Both the position numbers and the translations under genes were made by a program. Positions 2,586 through 14,606 of a DNA stretch of 64,000 nucleotides are shown here, one piece after another. This DNA comes from a virus, in IMG/VR virus record IMGVR_UViG_3300020172_003394, positions 22,229 through 86,228 of that record; one strand, given 5' to 3'. Position 1 is the first letter of the stretch. Every line of letters begins with the position of its first letter. The notes under the pieces were generated by a model. The model was given only the letters and a program-made list of their open reading frames with translations. It was not told the origin of the DNA and did not search any database.

Positions 2586-2801
2586 ATGACGATACTCAAA
2601 TGTAAAAACTGTGGAGAAACCCAAAATCTACATACCAACTACGCGTATCATTTACCCGATACGCCTGTAGAAAGTATTTTGTGTAATGAATGTGGGGAGA
2701 TTACCGAAGTAACGCATGGTGATAGAAGCTTAACTAGCATAAGCACCGGCTTGTGGCGCCGGGGACAGCGGGGGCAGCACCCGTCTATCACCCTGTGGTA
2801 A
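2586..2801 (+). CDS. small Zn-finger protein whose frame runs through tRNA-His
   Basis: CKNC...CNEC; ATG at 2586. Confidence 0.5.
   Translation: MTILKCKNCGETQNLHTNYAYHLPDTPVESILCNECGEITEVTHGDRSLTSISTGLWRRGQRGQHPSITLW
2718..2792 (+). tRNA. atypical tRNA-His(GTG)
   Basis: G-1/C73, acceptor GTGATAG/CTATCAC, anticodon arm CCGGC-TTGTGGC-GCCGG; T-loop GGCAGCA; no GG in D-loop. Confidence 0.8.
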
Positions 2802-2831
2802 ATACGCGGGTTCAAGTCCCGTCATTCACCC
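2794..2831 (+). pseudogene. 3'-half remnant of a canonical tRNA-His
   Basis: TGTGG followed by T-arm GCGGG-TTCAAGT-CCCGT and CATTCACC; no 5' half. Confidence 0.6.
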
Positions 2832-2887
2832 TAGTACGCCCCTATAGTTCAATTGAAAGCGCATGAATTTAAGAGTATTAATAAGTT

Positions 2888-2962
2888 GGATGAGTGGCAG
2901 AGAGGTCCAATGCAAGAGTCTGCAAAACTCTAAAGCCGCCGGTTCGAATCCGGCCTCGTCCT
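2888..2962 (+). tRNA. tRNA-Cys(GCA)
   Basis: anticodon arm AGAGT-CTGCAAA-ACTCT, U73. Confidence 0.95.
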
Positions 2963-3037
2963 TGCCGAATTTGATTCGGCTGTTTCAGAAATATAACACT
3001 CTGTTATATTCAACACTCGTATAGTTAGGAGTATTCT

Positions 3038-4153
3038 ATGAAAAAACTTATGTTAGCAACGCTGTTATTTAGTGTTGTTGCATGTGATACTTCAACTGAA
3101 CCTTCGCCAACACCCGTAGCAACACAGGTTGCTATTTCTCCGGCGGCAGGACAAGTTGAAGTGGGTCGCACGGCTACACTCACAGCAACAGTATCAGACC
3201 AACTGGGTCGCCCCCTTACTTCACCTGTTACTTGGAGTTCTTTGAACCCTACAGTAGCAACGGTTTCATCCGCAGGTGTCATCACGGGGGTTGCACGTGG
3301 ACAAGCATCAATTCGTGCAACATCGGGAGATGTGCAAGCAACAGTAACGGTATTCGTTATTGACCCAACGGTGGCAACAGTCACCATCACAGGTGCACCC
3401 ACATCTACGTTTTTTGTGGGACAAACCTTCCAAGCAACAGCAACAGCACGTGATGCTTCAAACAATGTTTTAACATCATTTGTGACCACTTGGACATCAG
3501 GTACGCCTGCAGTAGCAACCGTTTCACCGTCAGGATTGGTTACTGCTGTTTCCGCAGGAACATCAATCATCACTATTTCGGTGGGTGGAAGAACATCAAC
3601 AATTACTGTGACAGTTTCATTAGTCCCTGTGAATACTGTAACATTGTCATTGCCGTCACCTGCACGAGTAGGTCGAGATGTAGCGATTACGTCTGTGCTA
3701 CGTAATGCAACAGGAGCAACACTAACATCAGCACAACGAAATTTTGTGTGGGCAAGCACAGACACAACGGTTGCCACTGTTTCTTCTGCTGGTGTTGTTC
3801 GCGGTGTTTCTGTGGGCAATACCACCATCACTGCAATTGTTGAAGGAAAGGTGGGTATTCTTTCTGTATCAGTAACCGAAGTTGCAATTGACCGTATTGT
3901 TGTCACACCTGATAGTGCCAATGTTAAGGTTGGCGCAACTAGACAATACGTTGCTCAAGCGTTTGACGCAGATAGTGTTTCACTTTCTACGGCAGCACTA
4001 AATAGTCGTGTGTTCACATGGACGAGTAGCAACACAGTCAAGTTTGTTGTATCTAATTCAGGACTTGTTACTGGTGTGGCAGTTGGCTCGGAAACCGTAA
4101 CAGCAACAATTGGCAATAAATCCGGGACATCACAAGTTATTATCGTCCCATAA
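3038..4153 (+). CDS. lipoprotein with tandem bacterial Ig-like (Big_2) domains
   Basis: lipobox VVAC; four repeats of W-S-S-x-P-x-VATVS-x-x-G-x-V-T-G. Confidence 0.9.
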   Translation: MKKLMLATLLFSVVACDTSTEPSPTPVATQVAISPAAGQVEVGRTATLTATVSDQLGRPLTSPVTWSSLNPTVATVSSAGVITGVARGQASIRATSGDVQATVTVFVIDPTVATVTITGAPTSTFFVGQTFQATATARDASNNVLTSFVTTWTSGTPAVATVSPSGLVTAVSAGTSIITISVGGRTSTITVTVSLVPVNTVTLSLPSPARVGRDVAITSVLRNATGATLTSAQRNFVWASTDTTVATVSSAGVVRGVSVGNTTITAIVEGKVGILSVSVTEVAIDRIVVTPDSANVKVGATRQYVAQAFDADSVSLSTAALNSRVFTWTSSNTVKFVVSNSGLVTGVAVGSETVTATIGNKSGTSQVIIVP

Positions 4154-4165
4154 CATTTATACAAG

Positions 4166-4251
4166 TAGTTTCAGGGGGTGTGTTGGTATGAGAAAGTCTA
4201 TGAATATTGAAAAGATTTTAAAATACATCAATCAACACCCCCTGAAAGCTG
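4166..4251 (+). ncRNA. candidate structured ncRNA A (long irregular hairpin)
   Basis: TAGTTTCAGGGGGTGT pairs with ACACCCCCTGAAAGCTG; inner GTAT/ATAC and AAAGTCT/AGATTTT. Confidence 0.45.
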
Positions 4252-4298
4252 TGTGTATTTGTGAGAAAACTCAGACGGAAACCTCGGAAAGAGATACC

Positions 4299-4379
4299 GC
4301 TACCTTCGCATAGTGGGATTGCACTTTCTTGGTAAGAAAGAGCCGTAAGGCAGAGTGAGTTCGATTCTCACAGGTAGCT
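4299..4379 (+). tRNA. tRNA-Thr(GGT) with long variable arm
   Basis: acceptor GCTACCT/AGGTAGC; CTTTC-TTGGTAA-GAAAG; V-arm GCC-GTAA-GGC. Confidence 0.85.
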
Positions 4380-4386
4380 TTACACT

Positions 4387-4458
4387 GCCCTGATAGTGTA
4401 ATGGAGAGCACGATTGTCTTCGGAACAATTAGTAAAAGTTCGAATCTTTTTCGGGGCA
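4387..4458 (+). tRNA. tRNA-Arg(TCG)
   Basis: ATTGT-CTTCGGA-ACAAT; AT-rich T stem. Confidence 0.85.
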
Positions 4459-4463
4459 CTTAT

Positions 4464-4537
4464 ACCCTCGTAGCTCAGCTGGATAGAGCATCAGACTTCT
4501 AATCTGAGGGTCAGAGGTTCGAATCCTCTCGGGGGTG
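4464..4537 (+). tRNA. tRNA-Arg(TCT)
   Basis: TCAGA-CTTCTAA-TCTGA, canonical D/T loops. Confidence 0.95.
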
Positions 4538-4541
4538 TTTT

Positions 4542-4628
4542 GGTGCGGTGGTAGAGAGGTTGAATGCACGGGATTGCAAATCCTGCTAGTGGAAACACTA
4601 CACGCCGGTTCGAATCCGGCCCGCACCT
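4542..4628 (+). tRNA. tRNA-Cys(GCA) with long variable arm
   Basis: GGTGCGG/CCGCACC-U73; CGGGA-TTGCAAA-TCCTG; V-arm TAGTG-GAAA-CACTA. Confidence 0.9.
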
Positions 4629-4644
4629 CTAACAAGGAGAAAAT

Positions 4645-5250
4645 ATGTCGTTTCGGATAACAACACGAGTACATAGTGTAAAAAAAGATATACTACCATT
4701 TGCATACGTGGATGATATTTTTACTCCAGAAGAGTTGCAACGGGTCGTTGATTACTGTGATAATTTACAATTGATAGATGCTACGATTGGGCAAGGAAAA
4801 TTAGCACCACAATATAGAAAATCAAAAGTTAATCAATTTAAGGTGAATAAAGAAAACGAGTGGATATTTGAAAGGTTGCAAATAGCCACCGAATATATGA
4901 ATAATGAGTTTTTTAGATTTGATTTAATTGGGTTCGACCAAATACAGTATACTGAGTATAGAGATGACAACAACCTATATGATTTTCACGTAGACTGCTA
5001 TATGGGACACGATGTTCCATTAGATCATTCATATCCAAGAAAGCTTTCATTCAGCTTAATACTTTCTGACAATACCGAATACACGGGTGGTAAATTTGAA
5101 GTGATGTACTCCAAAGTACCGGAAGAAGTAACACAAAAAAAAGGCAGACTTCTAGCATTTCCGTCTCATATGTTGCATAGAGTTACACCTGTAATAAAAG
5201 GAACTAGAAAATCTCTTGTGTTTTGGGTGATAGGACCAAAGTTCAAATAG
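4645..5250 (+). CDS. 2OG-Fe(II) oxygenase (PKHD/prolyl-hydroxylase-like)
   Basis: HVD...RKLSFS...FPS...HRVTPV..GTRKSLVFW. Confidence 0.9.
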   Translation: MSFRITTRVHSVKKDILPFAYVDDIFTPEELQRVVDYCDNLQLIDATIGQGKLAPQYRKSKVNQFKVNKENEWIFERLQIATEYMNNEFFRFDLIGFDQIQYTEYRDDNNLYDFHVDCYMGHDVPLDHSYPRKLSFSLILSDNTEYTGGKFEVMYSKVPEEVTQKKGRLLAFPSHMLHRVTPVIKGTRKSLVFWVIGPKFK

Positions 5251-5259
5251 GAATACTAT

Positions 5260-5469
5260 ATGAAAAAAATAAATATTGAAGTTATCAAAAATATAATATC
5301 GATTATAATCGCATATGGTGCACTAATTATTGTAGCCGCGGTATTACTTTTTACTGCAATAAATAAAACAACTAACGACAGCAAAGAACATGACAGTAAA
5401 ACGCAAGTAGAAAATACGGTGTTGGAAAGTGGTAACATTGAGAATGCTATAAAAACCAATCAATACTGA
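5260..5469 (+). CDS. small membrane-anchored protein
   Basis: N-terminal hydrophobic helix. Confidence 0.55.
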   Translation: MKKINIEVIKNIISIIIAYGALIIVAAVLLFTAINKTTNDSKEHDSKTQVENTVLESGNIENAIKTNQY

Positions 5470-5750
5470 TGAAAAAAATTTTATTTACAAAACCAATTAC
5501 ACTATCCGAAACTGCAGAACACAGAGTCCATACACGTAAGTGGTGGGCAATTCTTATCTTGATTATTGGTGGTCTTTTATTGGCAGGACGAGCACCAGTT
5601 CCGATGTCGTTAAGTTATACTCTTTTGTTCTTTGGCCACGCAGGAATGTTGCATAGTTTTTGGGAAAAACGGGATTACCCTATGGTTATCGTCAATCTTG
5701 TTTGGCTTGGTGTTGATGCCTTGGGGTTCATACGATGGTGGAATATGTAG
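5469..5750 (+). CDS. small membrane protein
   Basis: three hydrophobic segments; translationally coupled. Confidence 0.65.
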   Translation: MKKILFTKPITLSETAEHRVHTRKWWAILILIIGGLLLAGRAPVPMSLSYTLLFFGHAGMLHSFWEKRDYPMVIVNLVWLGVDALGFIRWWNM

Positions 5751-5932
5751 TCAAATCTCCATGCATAAAAGTATGTAAATTACATAAAAATTCATGCATA
5801 GGGTGTCATAGGACTGTAGAAGAAATCAAAAAATGGAATAAATATTCAAACTTGACAAAAGTTTGGGTATGGGTTAAATTATATATAAGACGATATGACC
5901 AGAACTTGTGGAACCTGTACAAAATGTTGTGA
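5735..5932 (+). CDS. DUF1289-like Cys-rich protein
   Basis: SPCIKVC...CIGCHRTVEEIKKW. Confidence 0.75.
   Translation: MVEYVVKSPCIKVCKLHKNSCIGCHRTVEEIKKWNKYSNLTKVWVWVKLYIRRYDQNLWNLYKML
5852..5880 (+). promoter_or_regulatory. sigma70-type promoter
   Basis: TTGACA-N17-TAAATT. Confidence 0.55.
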
Positions 5933-6314
5933 TGGGTGGTTATCTGTTGAAGTATACGGTAATAAAGTAAATGTTGGCAATCCGTGTATCTTCAAAAAAG
6001 AAAGTTGTGGATGCTCTATATATCAAGACAGACCTATCACATGTAAAGAATTTTTGTGTGGGTGGATCAGAGATGATGGTACGCTGTTTGAAGAATGGAT
6101 GAAACCAGATGTAGTTAATTTTATTCTAGTGTACTATAAAGTAGAAGAACTTAATTGGTATAAATTAGTTCAAGCAGGTGAAGATATAAACACGTTGATG
6201 TTAAGTTACGTTATACAAAAAGCACTTCGACAAAATATTAATTTGGAATACTGGATCGGTAATACACAATTTTTAATTGGGTCGGAAGAGTTTAAAAAAT
6301 ACGTAAAGCATTAG
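5895..6314 (+). CDS. YkgJ-like Cys-cluster protein
   Basis: CGTCTKCC...C...GCSIYQDRP..CKEFLC. Confidence 0.75.
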   Translation: MTRTCGTCTKCCDGWLSVEVYGNKVNVGNPCIFKKESCGCSIYQDRPITCKEFLCGWIRDDGTLFEEWMKPDVVNFILVYYKVEELNWYKLVQAGEDINTLMLSYVIQKALRQNINLEYWIGNTQFLIGSEEFKKYVKH

Positions 6315-6316
6315 TC

Positions 6317-6390
6317 GGCAGGGTAGCTCAGTTGGTGAGAGCGCACGACTCATAATCGTGAGGTCGAGGGTTCGAATCCCTCCCCCGCTA
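6317..6390 (+). tRNA. tRNA-Met(CAT), elongator type
   Basis: CACGA-CTCATAA-TCGTG; GGC.../...GCT-A acceptor. Confidence 0.9.
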
Positions 6391-6394
6391 TCAA

Positions 6395-6476
6395 GGGAGT
6401 GTTGCAGAGCGGCCAAATGCAGTTGACTGTAAATCAACCGTCTTAGACTTCGGTGGTTCGAATCCACCCGCTCCCA
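6395..6476 (+). tRNA. tRNA-Tyr(GTA)
   Basis: GTTGA-CTGTAAA-TCAAC, long V-arm. Confidence 0.95.
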
Positions 6477-6479
6477 TAT

Positions 6480-6553
6480 AGGCGCGTAGCTCAGGTGGTT
6501 AGAGCACTGACCTGATAAGTCAGGGGTCGCTGGTTCAACTCCAGCCGTGCCTA
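6480..6553 (+). tRNA. tRNA-Ile(GAT)
   Basis: CTGAC-CTGATAA-GTCAG. Confidence 0.95.
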
Positions 6554-6558
6554 TTTTA

Positions 6559-6630
6559 GCCCCGATAGCTCAATGGTAGAGCATGTGACTCTTAATCACC
6601 AGGTTGTAGGTTCGAGTCCTACTCGGGGCA
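6559..6630 (+). tRNA. tRNA-Lys(CTT)
   Basis: loop CTCTTAA. Confidence 0.95.
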
Positions 6631-6633
6631 TAC

Positions 6634-6706
6634 GCCAAGATAGCTCAGTTGGTAGAGCAGCGGACTGAAGCTCCGCGTGTCGGGGGTTCGACTCCCTCTC
6701 TTGGCA
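6634..6706 (+). tRNA. tRNA-Phe(GAA), G37
   Basis: GCGGA-CTGAAGC-TCCGC. Confidence 0.93.
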
Positions 6707-6712
6707 CTAAGG

Positions 6713-7084
6713 TTAAAGTGGTAATTCAGTAAGATTATTCTCTCGGTCTAAATACTTCATTTCGACCTTAACAGGATTAAATTCCTGAATGGCATTTACC
6801 ACAAGTTGTGGGTCAAGTGTACCGCAGGTATATACATCAAGTTGTAATAAACCAGGTGAGACTTCATCCCACACGTGAAGTGCGATGTGACTTGTTTCGA
6901 TGATGGCAACAGCAGTAAGACCACGATTACCAGCGACATCAAGATAGTTCGCAAATGGTCCCATCATAACTTTCATACCAATGGAAGAAATAAGTGTTTC
7001 CATCCAATGTATTGTAGTTTGTTTGTCTGTTGGTGGATTGGTGACTTCGGCACGAACGATAAGATGTTTATGAACGAGTGGCAT
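6713..7084 (-). CDS. speD: S-adenosylmethionine decarboxylase proenzyme
   Basis: KHLI...GLTAVAIIETSHIALHVW...QLDVYTCG. Confidence 0.85.
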   Translation of the reverse strand: MPLVHKHLIVRAEVTNPPTDKQTTIHWMETLISSIGMKVMMGPFANYLDVAGNRGLTAVAIIETSHIALHVWDEVSPGLLQLDVYTCGTLDPQLVVNAIQEFNPVKVEMKYLDRENNLTELPL

Positions 7085-7153
7085 ATTACATATCCTTTGT
7101 TATAATGTTGTTAGTAAATATATAAGTATTAACGGTATATAAGGAAAATTATA

Positions 7154-7249
7154 ATGAAAGCAGCAGTTATTACATTTTTAATAATAGCTATTAGTATAAG
7201 CTTGACAACCGCGTGGATAGCTATTATATTAGAAAGGGACGAGTTTTAG
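7154..7249 (+). CDS. 31-aa hydrophobic peptide
   Basis: AAGGA RBS; MKAAVITFLIIAISISLTTAWIAIILERDEF. Confidence 0.4.
   Translation: MKAAVITFLIIAISISLTTAWIAIILERDEF
7202..7230 (+). promoter_or_regulatory. sigma70-type promoter upstream of tRNA-Trp
   Basis: TTGACA-N17-TATATT. Confidence 0.75.
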
Positions 7250-7319
7250 GTCCATAGTGTAATTGGCAACACAACAGTCTCCAAAACTGTTTTTCAAGGT
7301 TCGAGTCCTTGTGGGCCTG
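7248..7319 (+). tRNA. tRNA-Trp(CCA)
   Basis: ACAGT-CTCCAAA-ACTGT. Confidence 0.95.
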
Positions 7320-7325
7320 TTTCAT

Positions 7326-7399
7326 TCCCAGGTAGCTCAGTTGGTAGTAGCAGCGCACTGTTAATGCGCGGGTCGGGGGTTCAAGTCCCTCCCTGGGAG
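7326..7399 (+). tRNA. tRNA-Asn(GTT)
   Basis: GCGCA-CTGTTAA-TGCGC. Confidence 0.95.
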
Positions 7400-7433
7400 C
7401 TTGTCGTATTTATTTTTCACAAACGAGGTTATT

Positions 7434-7691
7434 ATGAATTTGACACCGAATGATAAGTTGAAGTTGGAAGCAGCACTGAAGGATATGGCTACGTCTATGA
7501 CACGGGTAGCAGCAGAACGCGACCTACAGAAGAATGTGATTGGAGACATCTGTGAAGAACTCCAACTCAATAAGAAGGTGTTCCGTAAGTTGGCACGTGT
7601 GTATTACAAGCAAAACTTTGATGACGAAGTTGCAACGCATCAAGAGTTTGAAACCCTTTACGAGACTGTAACGCAAACTACTAAGCCCTAA
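7434..7691 (+). CDS. T4 DsbA-like double-stranded DNA-binding protein
   Basis: KKVFRKLARVYYKQNFDDEV...FETLYE; GAGG RBS before ATG 7434. Confidence 0.7.
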   Translation: MNLTPNDKLKLEAALKDMATSMTRVAAERDLQKNVIGDICEELQLNKKVFRKLARVYYKQNFDDEVATHQEFETLYETVTQTTKP

Positions 7692-9573: not shown

Positions 9574-9658
9574 GGACAGTTGGCTGAGTGGTCTAAAGCA
9601 GGAGATTACTAATCTCTCGTACTGAAAGGTACCGTGGGTTCGAATCCTACACTGTCCG
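9574..9658 (+). tRNA. tRNA-Ser(ACT)
   Basis: GGACAGT/ACTGTCC-G73, long V-arm, GGAGA-TTACTAA-TCTCT. Confidence 0.9.
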
Positions 9659-13208: not shown

Positions 13209-13282
13209 CCGCCAGTGGCCAAATGGTGAAGGCAGCGGTCTTATATACCGAAGATGTGTAGGTTCAAGTCCTACCTGGCGGA
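13209..13282 (+). tRNA. tRNA-Ile(TAT)
   Basis: CCGCCAG/CTGGCGG-A73; CGGT-CTTATAT-ACCG; canonical T arm. Confidence 0.85.
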
Positions 13283-13305
13283 CTTGGTTATTGTGGTGGG
13301 TAGTA

Positions 13306-14509: not shown

Positions 14510-14581
14510 GCCACAATAGCTCAGCGGTAGAGCACTCGATTTGTAATCGAGCGGTCGTCGGTTCAATCCCGACTTGTGGCT
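14510..14581 (+). tRNA. tRNA-Thr(TGT)
   Basis: CTCGA-TTTGTAA-TCGAG. Confidence 0.95.
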
Positions 14582-14606
14582 CTTAAATAAAACCAAACAT
14601 ACTTGA

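Follow-up and report, generated by a model that had tools for sequence, protein, structure and literature searches.

Can a phage tRNA bear the long variable arm of a class II tRNA and still serve as a tRNA for cysteine or threonine? Long arms in bacteria are held to be restricted to the tRNAs for Leu, Ser, Tyr and Sec (PMC7609411; also textbooks), and the 2020 review of non-canonical tRNAs, which counts Ser, Leu and Tyr as class II, deals with neither of the two families described here, nor with phages (PMC7609411). The openly searchable literature, as distinct from subscription journals, contained no description of Cys or Thr tRNAs that combine a long variable region (long-V) with a 7-bp acceptor and a 5-bp T stem (7/5), and the members in GenBank are annotated as plain tRNA-Cys or tRNA-Thr. 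An earlier note on this DNA had proposed that the two RNAs are anticodon-shifted or chimeric and either evade host defences that target tRNAs or are mischarged, for example with Ser.

Results

Two class-II-shaped tRNA genes in a phage tRNA cluster

The window, by which we mean the whole stretch of 64,000 nucleotides that was analyzed, is part of an 86-kb IMG/VR virus record that is about 48% complete and carries 30 tRNA genes on a single strand. Runs containing window sequence derive from freshwater, lake-water and sludge metagenomes of several studies. The features of interest are as follows.

2888-2962, + strand: class I tRNA-Cys(GCA), 75 nt, with a 6-nt V loop; paralogue of the long-V tRNA-Cys
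4299-4379, + strand: tRNA-Thr(GGU), 81 nt, class-II-shaped, called by ARAGORN and Rfam RF00005; D-arm UC-GCAUAGUGGGAUUGC-A with U8-C9, a 3-bp D stem and U13-U22; discriminator U73
4331-4333, + strand: anticodon of tRNA-Thr(GGU)
4341-4354, + strand: V region of tRNA-Thr(GGU), A-GCC-GUAA-GGC-AGA, with the arm GCC (4342-4344) and GGC (4349-4351), the loop GUAA (4345-4348) and the 3' spacer AGA
4387-4538, + strand: tRNA-Arg(UCG) and tRNA-Arg(UCU), a class I pair of ordinary form that the two long-V tRNAs flank
4542-4628 (ARAGORN call to 4629), + strand: long-V tRNA-Cys(GCA), 87 nt, class-II-shaped, called by ARAGORN and Rfam; U8, G9, a 3-bp D stem and U73
4576-4578, + strand: anticodon of the long-V tRNA-Cys(GCA)
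4586-4603, + strand: V region of the long-V tRNA-Cys, C-UAGUG-GAAA-CACUA-CAC, with the arm UAGUG (4587-4591) and CACUA (4596-4600), the loop GAAA (4592-4595) and the 3' spacer CAC, which ends in C48
4645-5250, + strand: 2OG-Fe(II) oxygenase gene directly 3' of the long-V tRNA-Cys (Pfam PF13640, E 3e-13), used as a synteny marker
14510-14582, + strand: class I tRNA-Thr(UGU) of 73 nt, whose D stem has the ordinary 4 bp

Both long-V genes belong to the tRNA family RF00005, with 51.0 bits for Thr(GGU) and 52.2 bits for Cys(GCA) against a gathering score of 29, and their surplus bases form an insert in the variable region of the RF00005 alignment. The MFE fold of each is the cloverleaf with one extra hairpin (Thr, -28.0 kcal/mol, z -2.9; Cys, -33.9 kcal/mol, z -2.4). 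Class II architecture, taken as a stem-loop V region of at least 10 nt, a D stem of 3 bp and a 13-22 combination that is not Watson-Crick, was found in both tRNAs: the V regions of 14 nt (Thr) and 18 nt (Cys) are hairpins, and the 13-22 combination is U13-U22 in Thr and G13-A22 in Cys. Each has in addition a 7-bp acceptor, a 5-bp T stem and U73, and the anticodon loops are ordinary (YUGCAAA in Cys, UUGGUAA in Thr). ARAGORN, Rfam and the MFE fold agree here with the earlier note, which had described class-II-shaped Thr and Cys tRNAs with GCC-GUAA-GGC and UAGUG-GAAA-CACUA hairpins, and ARAGORN likewise called the ordinary Cys(GCA) and Thr(UGU) copies that it had reported beside them.

The Thr, Arg, Arg and Cys genes form one tight cluster with spacers of 3-7 nt. 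The long-V Cys and its class I paralogue have near-identical D-arms and identical T-arms. Contigs from an independent lake metagenome of a different study (run X4) matched the window with 0 differences over 3900-4498 and 4483-4740, so the window tRNAs are no assembly artefact. In a diverged strain from a sludge metagenome (run X10), T4326G and A4338C alter the two sides of one Thr anticodon-stem pair, a compensatory double change that preserves the pairing, and A4347G changes the Thr V loop from GUAA to GUGA, which is still GNRA. Metatranscriptome runs contain only small parts of the window, and the RNA-level trace is one 121-nt contig over 4516-4606, possibly DNA carry-over. Another metatranscriptome contig (run X19, depth 13, 6 differences) lies over the non-coding stretch 4200-4275, just upstream of tRNA-Thr. 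A search of the 86-kb record, itself about 48% complete, found no synthetase gene, neither a phage-encoded CysRS nor a Ser/Thr-type enzyme.

Two other tRNAs of the window are unusual in their own way. The tRNA-Ser at 9574-9658 has the anticodon ACU (A34) where GCU is usual, and ACU is also present in 12 distinct Ser tRNAs of other phage loci. The stretch 2719-2792 is a weak tRNA (Rfam 35 bits) that ARAGORN missed, with the anticodon GUG (His) and an odd T-loop, GGCAGCA. A match to the Rfam family 'freshwater-2' at 4569-4647, which reached 24 bits where the gathering score is 49.9, consists of the tRNA's own hairpins and the downstream ribosome-binding site and was taken as chance.

A syntenic relative carries a long tRNA-Cys at the same site

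A megablast search with 20 kb found no close relatives among cultured phages. Through the 2OG oxygenase, one IMG/VR relative only was obtained, IMGVR_UViG_3300035670_000038, whose oxygenase homologue is 80% identical, occupies the same position and follows the same gene order as in the window: Thr(GGU), Arg(UCG), Arg(UCU), Cys(GCA), oxygenase. The Cys(GCA) of the relative is long as well (85 nt), with a V arm that differs in sequence and has the same shape, and it is the sole Cys tRNA in the visible 24-tRNA array; the presence of a long tRNA-Cys at the syntenic site therefore indicates that the long-V form is conserved there. The relative's Thr(GGU), on the other hand, is an ordinary class I tRNA of 73 nt, and either a class I gene gave way to the long-V Thr in the lineage of the window or the reverse took place in the relative.

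The segment between tRNA-His and tRNA-Thr (window 2793-4298) also differs between the two. It is about 1.5 kb long in the window, where it carries the class I Cys and an ORF with Big_2 repeats (3038-4153), but only about 220 nt long in the related contig (L002:8283-8502), which is without the class I Cys segment, so an insertion or deletion carried the second Cys gene.

The long-V tRNA-Cys family in phages

BLAST against cultured phages located the long-V Cys in the Pseudomonas jumbo phage RVTF4 and in 20 Caulobacter phiCbK-like phages, whose annotation lists it as a plain tRNA-Cys of 86 nt. For a wider scan we used a pattern in which the Cys D-arm, the UGCAAA loop and GTTCGA were fixed and a long gap had to separate the loop from GTTCGA. 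This pattern matched at least 56 IMG/VR contigs, many of them larger than 100 kb, and ARAGORN called all of the IMG/VR matches Cys(GCA) of 80-93 nt. The same pattern with a class I gap matched at least 120 viral contigs, so that long-V members make up a sizeable minority within a Cys scaffold that is ordinary in other respects. Bacterial and archaeal genomes yielded only 20 contigs with the long-V pattern among 185,579 species.

The family is very uniform, with U8, G9, the D-arm G-C/U-N-GAGWGG-NNN-AA-N-G-C, the loop YUGCAAA, the T-loop UUCGAAU and U73, the GCA anticodon being set by the search pattern. The V region measures 10-21 nt and is usually laid out as 1 nt, a stem of 3-5 bp, a tetraloop and 3 nt ending in C; some members of this family and of the Thr family described below have a V region of 10-12 nt without a stem. 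In an alignment of 49 long-V Cys tRNAs, 95% of the cells were paired and the covariation score was 0.81, compared with 0.19 in shuffles; double changes numbered 14-17 at each of the three pairs in the core of the V stem.

E. coli CysRS recognizes U73, the GCA anticodon and the G15:N48 Levitt pair. All of these marks are present in the window copy (U73, GCA, and G15 with C48), from which charging with Cys is predicted. U73 was found in 38 of 39 family members, as was C48, which stands opposite G15, and the acceptor pairs 2:71 and 3:70 vary freely. The body has a Ser-like D-arm (U8, G9, C11:G24, GAGUGG).

Long-V tRNA-Cys in bacteria

Some of the 20 bacterial matches are in dense tRNA arrays and others are solitary chromosomal genes. 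An example of the former is a 31-tRNA array in Piscinibacter caeni contig13 (L074) at 3082-7590, with a reported span of about 4.5-8 kb; it looks phage-type and includes, besides a long-V Cys of 84 nt, Lys(UUU) and Asn(GUU) tRNAs of 87 nt each.

A covariance model, R1, was built from the long-V Cys family and searched in two Phycisphaerae and two Bacteriovoracaceae genomes, some of them MAGs. The top match in each of the four genomes was a long-V Cys (82-97 bits), followed by Tyr and Ser tRNAs. Matches of class I length scored at most 47 bits, the best three per genome being Gly, Met, Phe, Arg, Asn, Ile or Thr tRNAs; control class I Cys tRNAs from outside the model scored 70-80 bits. The long-V Cys thus appears to be the only tRNA-Cys in these four genomes, and since no other tRNA-Cys was apparent, we infer that it is cysteinylated and used in normal translation, as this finding strongly implies. 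In a scan of 151 Phycisphaerae genomes, the strict long-V pattern was found in the seed genome alone and the strict class I pattern in no genome at all, the pattern being too narrow for a statement on Phycisphaerae-wide use; the long-V Cys in Phycisphaerae seems sporadic and not class-wide.

A different group of long tRNAs was seen in MAGs of Acidobacteria and Verrucomicrobia (L062, L063, L069, L073, L078 and L079). These are Ser-like tRNAs of 89-96 nt with a GGAGAGG acceptor, G73 and a long V-arm, and their anticodon loop is either UGCAAA (6-nt) or CUGCAAAG (8-nt), for which ARAGORN reports a 4-nt anticodon, 'gcaa'. They are distinct from the phage Cys family.

Origin of the long-V Cys form

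The nearest relatives of the window long-V Cys are all Cys tRNAs, with the class I copy of the window itself coming nearest in D-arm and T-arm. For 39 long-V Cys tRNAs the closest class was class I Cys in 30, Ser in 6 and Tyr in 3, and the median best match was highest with class I Cys (0.65), followed by Ser (0.53) and Tyr (0.46), values in which the similarity of the class I and long-V forms is partly built in because the scans fixed the D-arm and T-loop. An origin from tRNA-Tyr through U35C was ruled out for the window copy, all of whose neighbours are Cys tRNAs, in a comparison that the search pattern biases. Nor was the earlier suggestion of chimeric tRNAs, taken here as chimeras of Leu, Ser or Tyr tRNAs, supported, given that the nearest relatives of the Cys copy are Cys tRNAs and the Thr copy falls in a large Thr-only family.

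When a tree was built from 142 Cys bodies without their V regions, class I and long-V members came out intermixed. At least 22 class changes were counted, compared with about 33 when the labels were shuffled, on a tree that is weakly resolved, as short tRNA trees are, and in which the search pattern forces D-arm similarity. Because the class changes are scattered over the tree, the arm has apparently been gained or lost repeatedly within the Cys lineage.

The long-V tRNA-Thr family

The D-arm of the window Thr(GGU), with its U8-C9, is unusual and is common to long-V Thr(UGU) genes of other phage loci. A scan with the D-arm UC-GCAUAGYGG and a UNGUAA loop, in which the V length was unconstrained, matched at least 100 IMG/VR contigs. 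Among the matches listed, all 62 distinct Thr tRNAs had a V region of 11-18 nt; the anticodons were UGU in 60, AGU in one and CGU in one, and the window copy was the only GGU. We define the family by U8-C9, the D-arm GCAUAGYGG(N1-2)AUUGC, a V region of 11-18 nt and G1-C2. The window Thr has all of these features and falls, together with L140, L301, L322 and L240, in a subgroup marked by GGGAUUGC, UUCGAUU and A48. A cultured member is present in the Vibrio jumbo phage 2.275.O, where it is annotated as tRNA-Thr.

In an alignment of 44 long-V Thr tRNAs, 99% of the cells were paired, the covariation score was 0.68 as against 0.17 in shuffles, and double changes had occurred in all three V-stem pairs. 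G1:C72 and C2:G71 were invariant in the 44 sequences. ThrRS of E. coli recognizes these two pairs together with G35 and U36, and the window copy carries all four marks, so that charging with Thr is predicted from its sequence. U73, which the earlier note had taken to favour genuine Cys and Thr identity, is in agreement with the other identity marks. Its suggestion of an anticodon shift is sustained in part: the window Thr does carry GGU in a family that is nearly all UGU, but the shift is merely synonymous within the Thr codon box.

Geometry and occurrence of V-arms across phage tRNA isotypes

V regions were parsed for the tRNAs of 181 phage loci, with the following results.

tRNA-Ser: 5' unpaired 1 nt, stem 5-7 bp, 3' spacer 1 nt; G73 in 87/128, U73 in 27/128
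tRNA-Leu: 5' unpaired 0-1 nt, stem 3-4 bp, 3' spacer about 2 nt; A73
tRNA-Tyr: 5' unpaired 1 nt, stem 3 bp, 3' spacer 3 nt; A73
long-V tRNA-Cys: 5' unpaired 1 nt, stem 3(-5) bp, 3' spacer 3 nt; U73
long-V tRNA-Thr: 5' unpaired 1 nt, stem 3 bp, 3' spacer 3 nt; U73 or A73

With its short stem and 3-nt spacer, the extra arm is therefore of the Tyr/Leu type and not of the Ser kind. Neither window tRNA has the combination typical of tRNA-Ser (a V stem of 5-7 bp, a 1-nt 3' spacer and usually G73), since the stem and spacer are 5 bp and 3 nt in Cys and 3 bp and 3 nt in Thr, and both carry U73. The marks of tRNA-Tyr and tRNA-Leu (A73, and U35 for Tyr) were not found either, U73 being present in both tRNAs and position 35 being C in Cys and G in Thr.

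In the same phage loci the long arm was present in 146 of 150 Ser, 68 of 69 Tyr and 131 of 192 Leu tRNAs, and sporadically in Thr, Lys, Met, Gly, Glu, Asn, Trp, His and Val tRNAs. The arm seems to be fixed where the synthetase contacts it and labile where the synthetase does not. Long-V Met, Lys, Gly, Glu, Trp, His, Asn and Val tRNAs were seen in L003, L008, L013, L028, L039, L040, L125, L144, L189, L106 and others, and these sporadic forms mostly repeat the same layout, with 1 nt before a stem of 3-4 bp, a tetraloop and a spacer of 3 nt. Class-I-shaped phage tRNA-Leu (55 distinct; L081, L010, L032, L033, L042, L053, L055 and others) make up about one third of the Leu tRNAs in these loci; their V loop is 5-6 nt long, most of them have A73, and the D-arm is of the Leu type. 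A recurrent phage tRNA-Ile(UAU) of 90-97 nt (24 distinct; L033:334-424, L050:4109-4200, L082, L100, L101, L112, L118, L126, L139, L142, L147 and others) has A73, a V region of 20-27 nt and a conserved CAGAU in the V hairpin loop, and comprises at least three subfamilies with different D-arms; the Ile(UAU) of the window (13209-13283) is of the normal length, 75 nt.

Two further ideas were discarded. The GNRA loop is not a special signal of the Cys and Thr arms, given that phage Ser and Leu arms are equally GNRA-rich. An obligate co-occurrence of long-V Cys and long-V Thr was not found either, the association being weak (5/23 vs 2/60, p 0.016, uncorrected for relatedness); the Cys tRNAs in long-V Thr loci are class I in 23 of 25 cases.

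Discussion

What we observed directly is the structure of the two tRNAs, the conservation and covariation of their arms, their identity nucleotides, their distribution, and the apparent status of the long-V Cys as sole tRNA-Cys in some bacteria. Judging from sequence, both genes probably encode functional elongator tRNAs that host CysRS and ThrRS would charge with their nominal amino acids, Cys and Thr. The two tRNAs would read UGY and ACY codons on the ribosome as parts of a near-complete phage tRNA set. Each gene would represent an old and widespread phage tRNA lineage whose variable loop has expanded to a short hairpin, laid out as 1 nt, a stem of 3-5 bp, a tetraloop and a 3-nt spacer on a core with a 3-bp D stem. 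Selection would keep the arm as a compact hairpin, and the arm would be a structural add-on, not an identity switch, in isotypes whose synthetases presumably do not read the variable region. The earlier note would have given up its reading if the host lineage routinely had such tRNAs; they proved to be routine in large phages and apparently the sole tRNA-Cys of a few bacteria, which tells in part against that reading.

Two further isotypes have a conserved extra arm in hundreds of phage genomes, and three cultured, tractable sources are at hand in the phiCbK-like phages, RVTF4 and 2.275.O. The two families offer a natural test set for the tolerance of CysRS, ThrRS, EF-Tu and the ribosome toward an extra arm and for the disregard of such an arm by SerRS, as well as for the use of the variable region in the phage tRNA arms race, and they bear on tRNA annotation and on orthogonal tRNA design.

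One could envisage that the arm is a nearly neutral insertion, in that CysRS, ThrRS, EF-Tu and the ribosome leave that face of the tRNA untouched and the covariation merely reflects selection against a floppy loop. We regard this as possible but doubtful. The intermixing of class I and long-V members on the Cys tree, the sporadic arms in many isotypes, the absence of the arm from about one third of phage tRNA-Leu and the members with a stemless V region of 10-12 nt are all consistent with it. However, among the matches listed, the extension is retained in every one of the 62 distinct Thr tRNAs that have the diagnostic D-arm, and the D-arm has been remodelled to the 3-bp class II type, which suggests an integrated architecture.

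It is unlikely, in our estimate, that the arm is instead a purpose-built handle, through which the phage Cys and Thr tRNAs are distinguished from those of the host and so spared by a nuclease, a modification enzyme or a 3'-end-blocking toxin, act as decoys for toxins directed at class II tRNAs, or are picked by a phage factor; were this true, V-arm grafting would be a general phage counter-defence outside the anticodon loop. We consider rather improbable the form of this idea that places the handle in phage-host conflict, where the arm would protect the tRNA against a host enzyme that cleaves or modifies tRNAs or against the phage's own activity that depletes host tRNAs, or would serve as a decoy for toxins that recognize class II tRNAs by the long arm, and which is compatible with correct Cys and Thr charging. 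A conflict would account for the strict retention of the extension in the listed Thr tRNAs, even in those without a stem, for the covariation of the V hairpin in both families, and for the mostly phage distribution of the long-V Cys, several of whose few bacterial and archaeal occurrences are themselves tRNA arrays. AbiEii and MenT3-type toxins have been reported to prefer class II tRNAs (bioRxiv 10.64898/2026.01.19.700257), and changes in the anticodon loop are known to let phage tRNAs escape anticodon nucleases (van den Berg et al. 2023, PMC10264068). Yet, to our knowledge, no defence acts on the variable region of tRNA-Cys or tRNA-Thr, and published evasion concerns the anticodon loop only, variable arms going unmentioned in that study (PMC10264068). 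The long-V Cys and long-V Thr occur mostly independently, as the class I Cys tRNAs of long-V Thr loci attest, which argues against one shared pressure; moreover, some bacteria apparently use the long-V Cys as their own tRNA, and the hosts are very diverse (Caulobacter, Pseudomonas, Vibrio).

The least likely reading is that SerRS reads the long arm and charges Ser, alone or beside Cys or Thr, so that Ser would be placed at UGY and ACY codons or the Ser-tRNA would be put to some other use. For E. coli SerRS the arm's orientation is decisive, and the 3-nt 3' spacer and the short stem of 3-5 bp set the Cys and Thr arms apart from the phage Ser arm. The mischarging that the earlier note had raised is very improbable on this account, and also given that 2:71 and 3:70 vary freely in the Cys family, that the Thr family has C2:G71 and not G2:C71, and that serylation would be harmful where the long-V Cys is apparently the sole tRNA-Cys, as in the four bacteria and in the visible array of the relative. 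SerRS does recognize the long arm and not the anticodon (PMC7609411, PMC5389517), and U73 allo-tRNAs have been considered possible Ser acceptors (PMC5389517). Some serylation is conceivable because 27 of 128 phage tRNA-Ser carry U73, the Cys body has a Ser-like D-arm and the V stem of the window Cys reaches 5 bp.

Comparison with known systems

Both RNAs resemble canonical class II tRNAs, tRNA-Tyr in particular, in their 7/5 acceptor and T stems, 3-bp D stem, unpaired 13-22 and V hairpin. Phage tRNA-Tyr shares with the Cys and Thr arms the 3-bp stem and the 3-nt 3' spacer ending in C48; unlike tRNA-Tyr, however, the Cys and Thr arms mostly have GNRA loops, a feature of phage Ser and Leu arms too. 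They differ from canonical class II tRNAs in having the anticodons GCA and GGU, U73 instead of A73 or G73, and bodies of Cys and Thr lineage. In nematodes, the nev-tRNAs are V-arm versions of tRNA-Gly(CCC) and tRNA-Ile(UAU) that have Leu identity and are mischarged with Leu. These too combine a class II shape with a class I anticodon, but the phage tRNAs keep the identity marks for Cys and Thr.

The selC* tRNA-Cys, a U73 tRNA with the anticodon GCA, is cysteinylated (PMC5389517, Mukai et al. 2017), in line with the CysRS identity elements U73 and GCA (PMC5389517). Like the tRNAs described here, the selC* and allo-tRNAs are bacterial or phage RNAs that join a long V-arm to anticodons other than those of Leu, Ser and Tyr, but their acceptor/T branches are 8/4 or 9/3, their D stems are long and their anticodon stems are Sec-like (PMC5389517). 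The window Cys and Thr tRNAs, with a 7-bp acceptor, a 5-bp T stem and a 5-bp anticodon stem, fall outside that group. The tRNAs of PMC10264068 are likewise encoded by phages and structurally unlike those of the host; there the changes lie in the anticodon loop, whereas here they lie in the V region.
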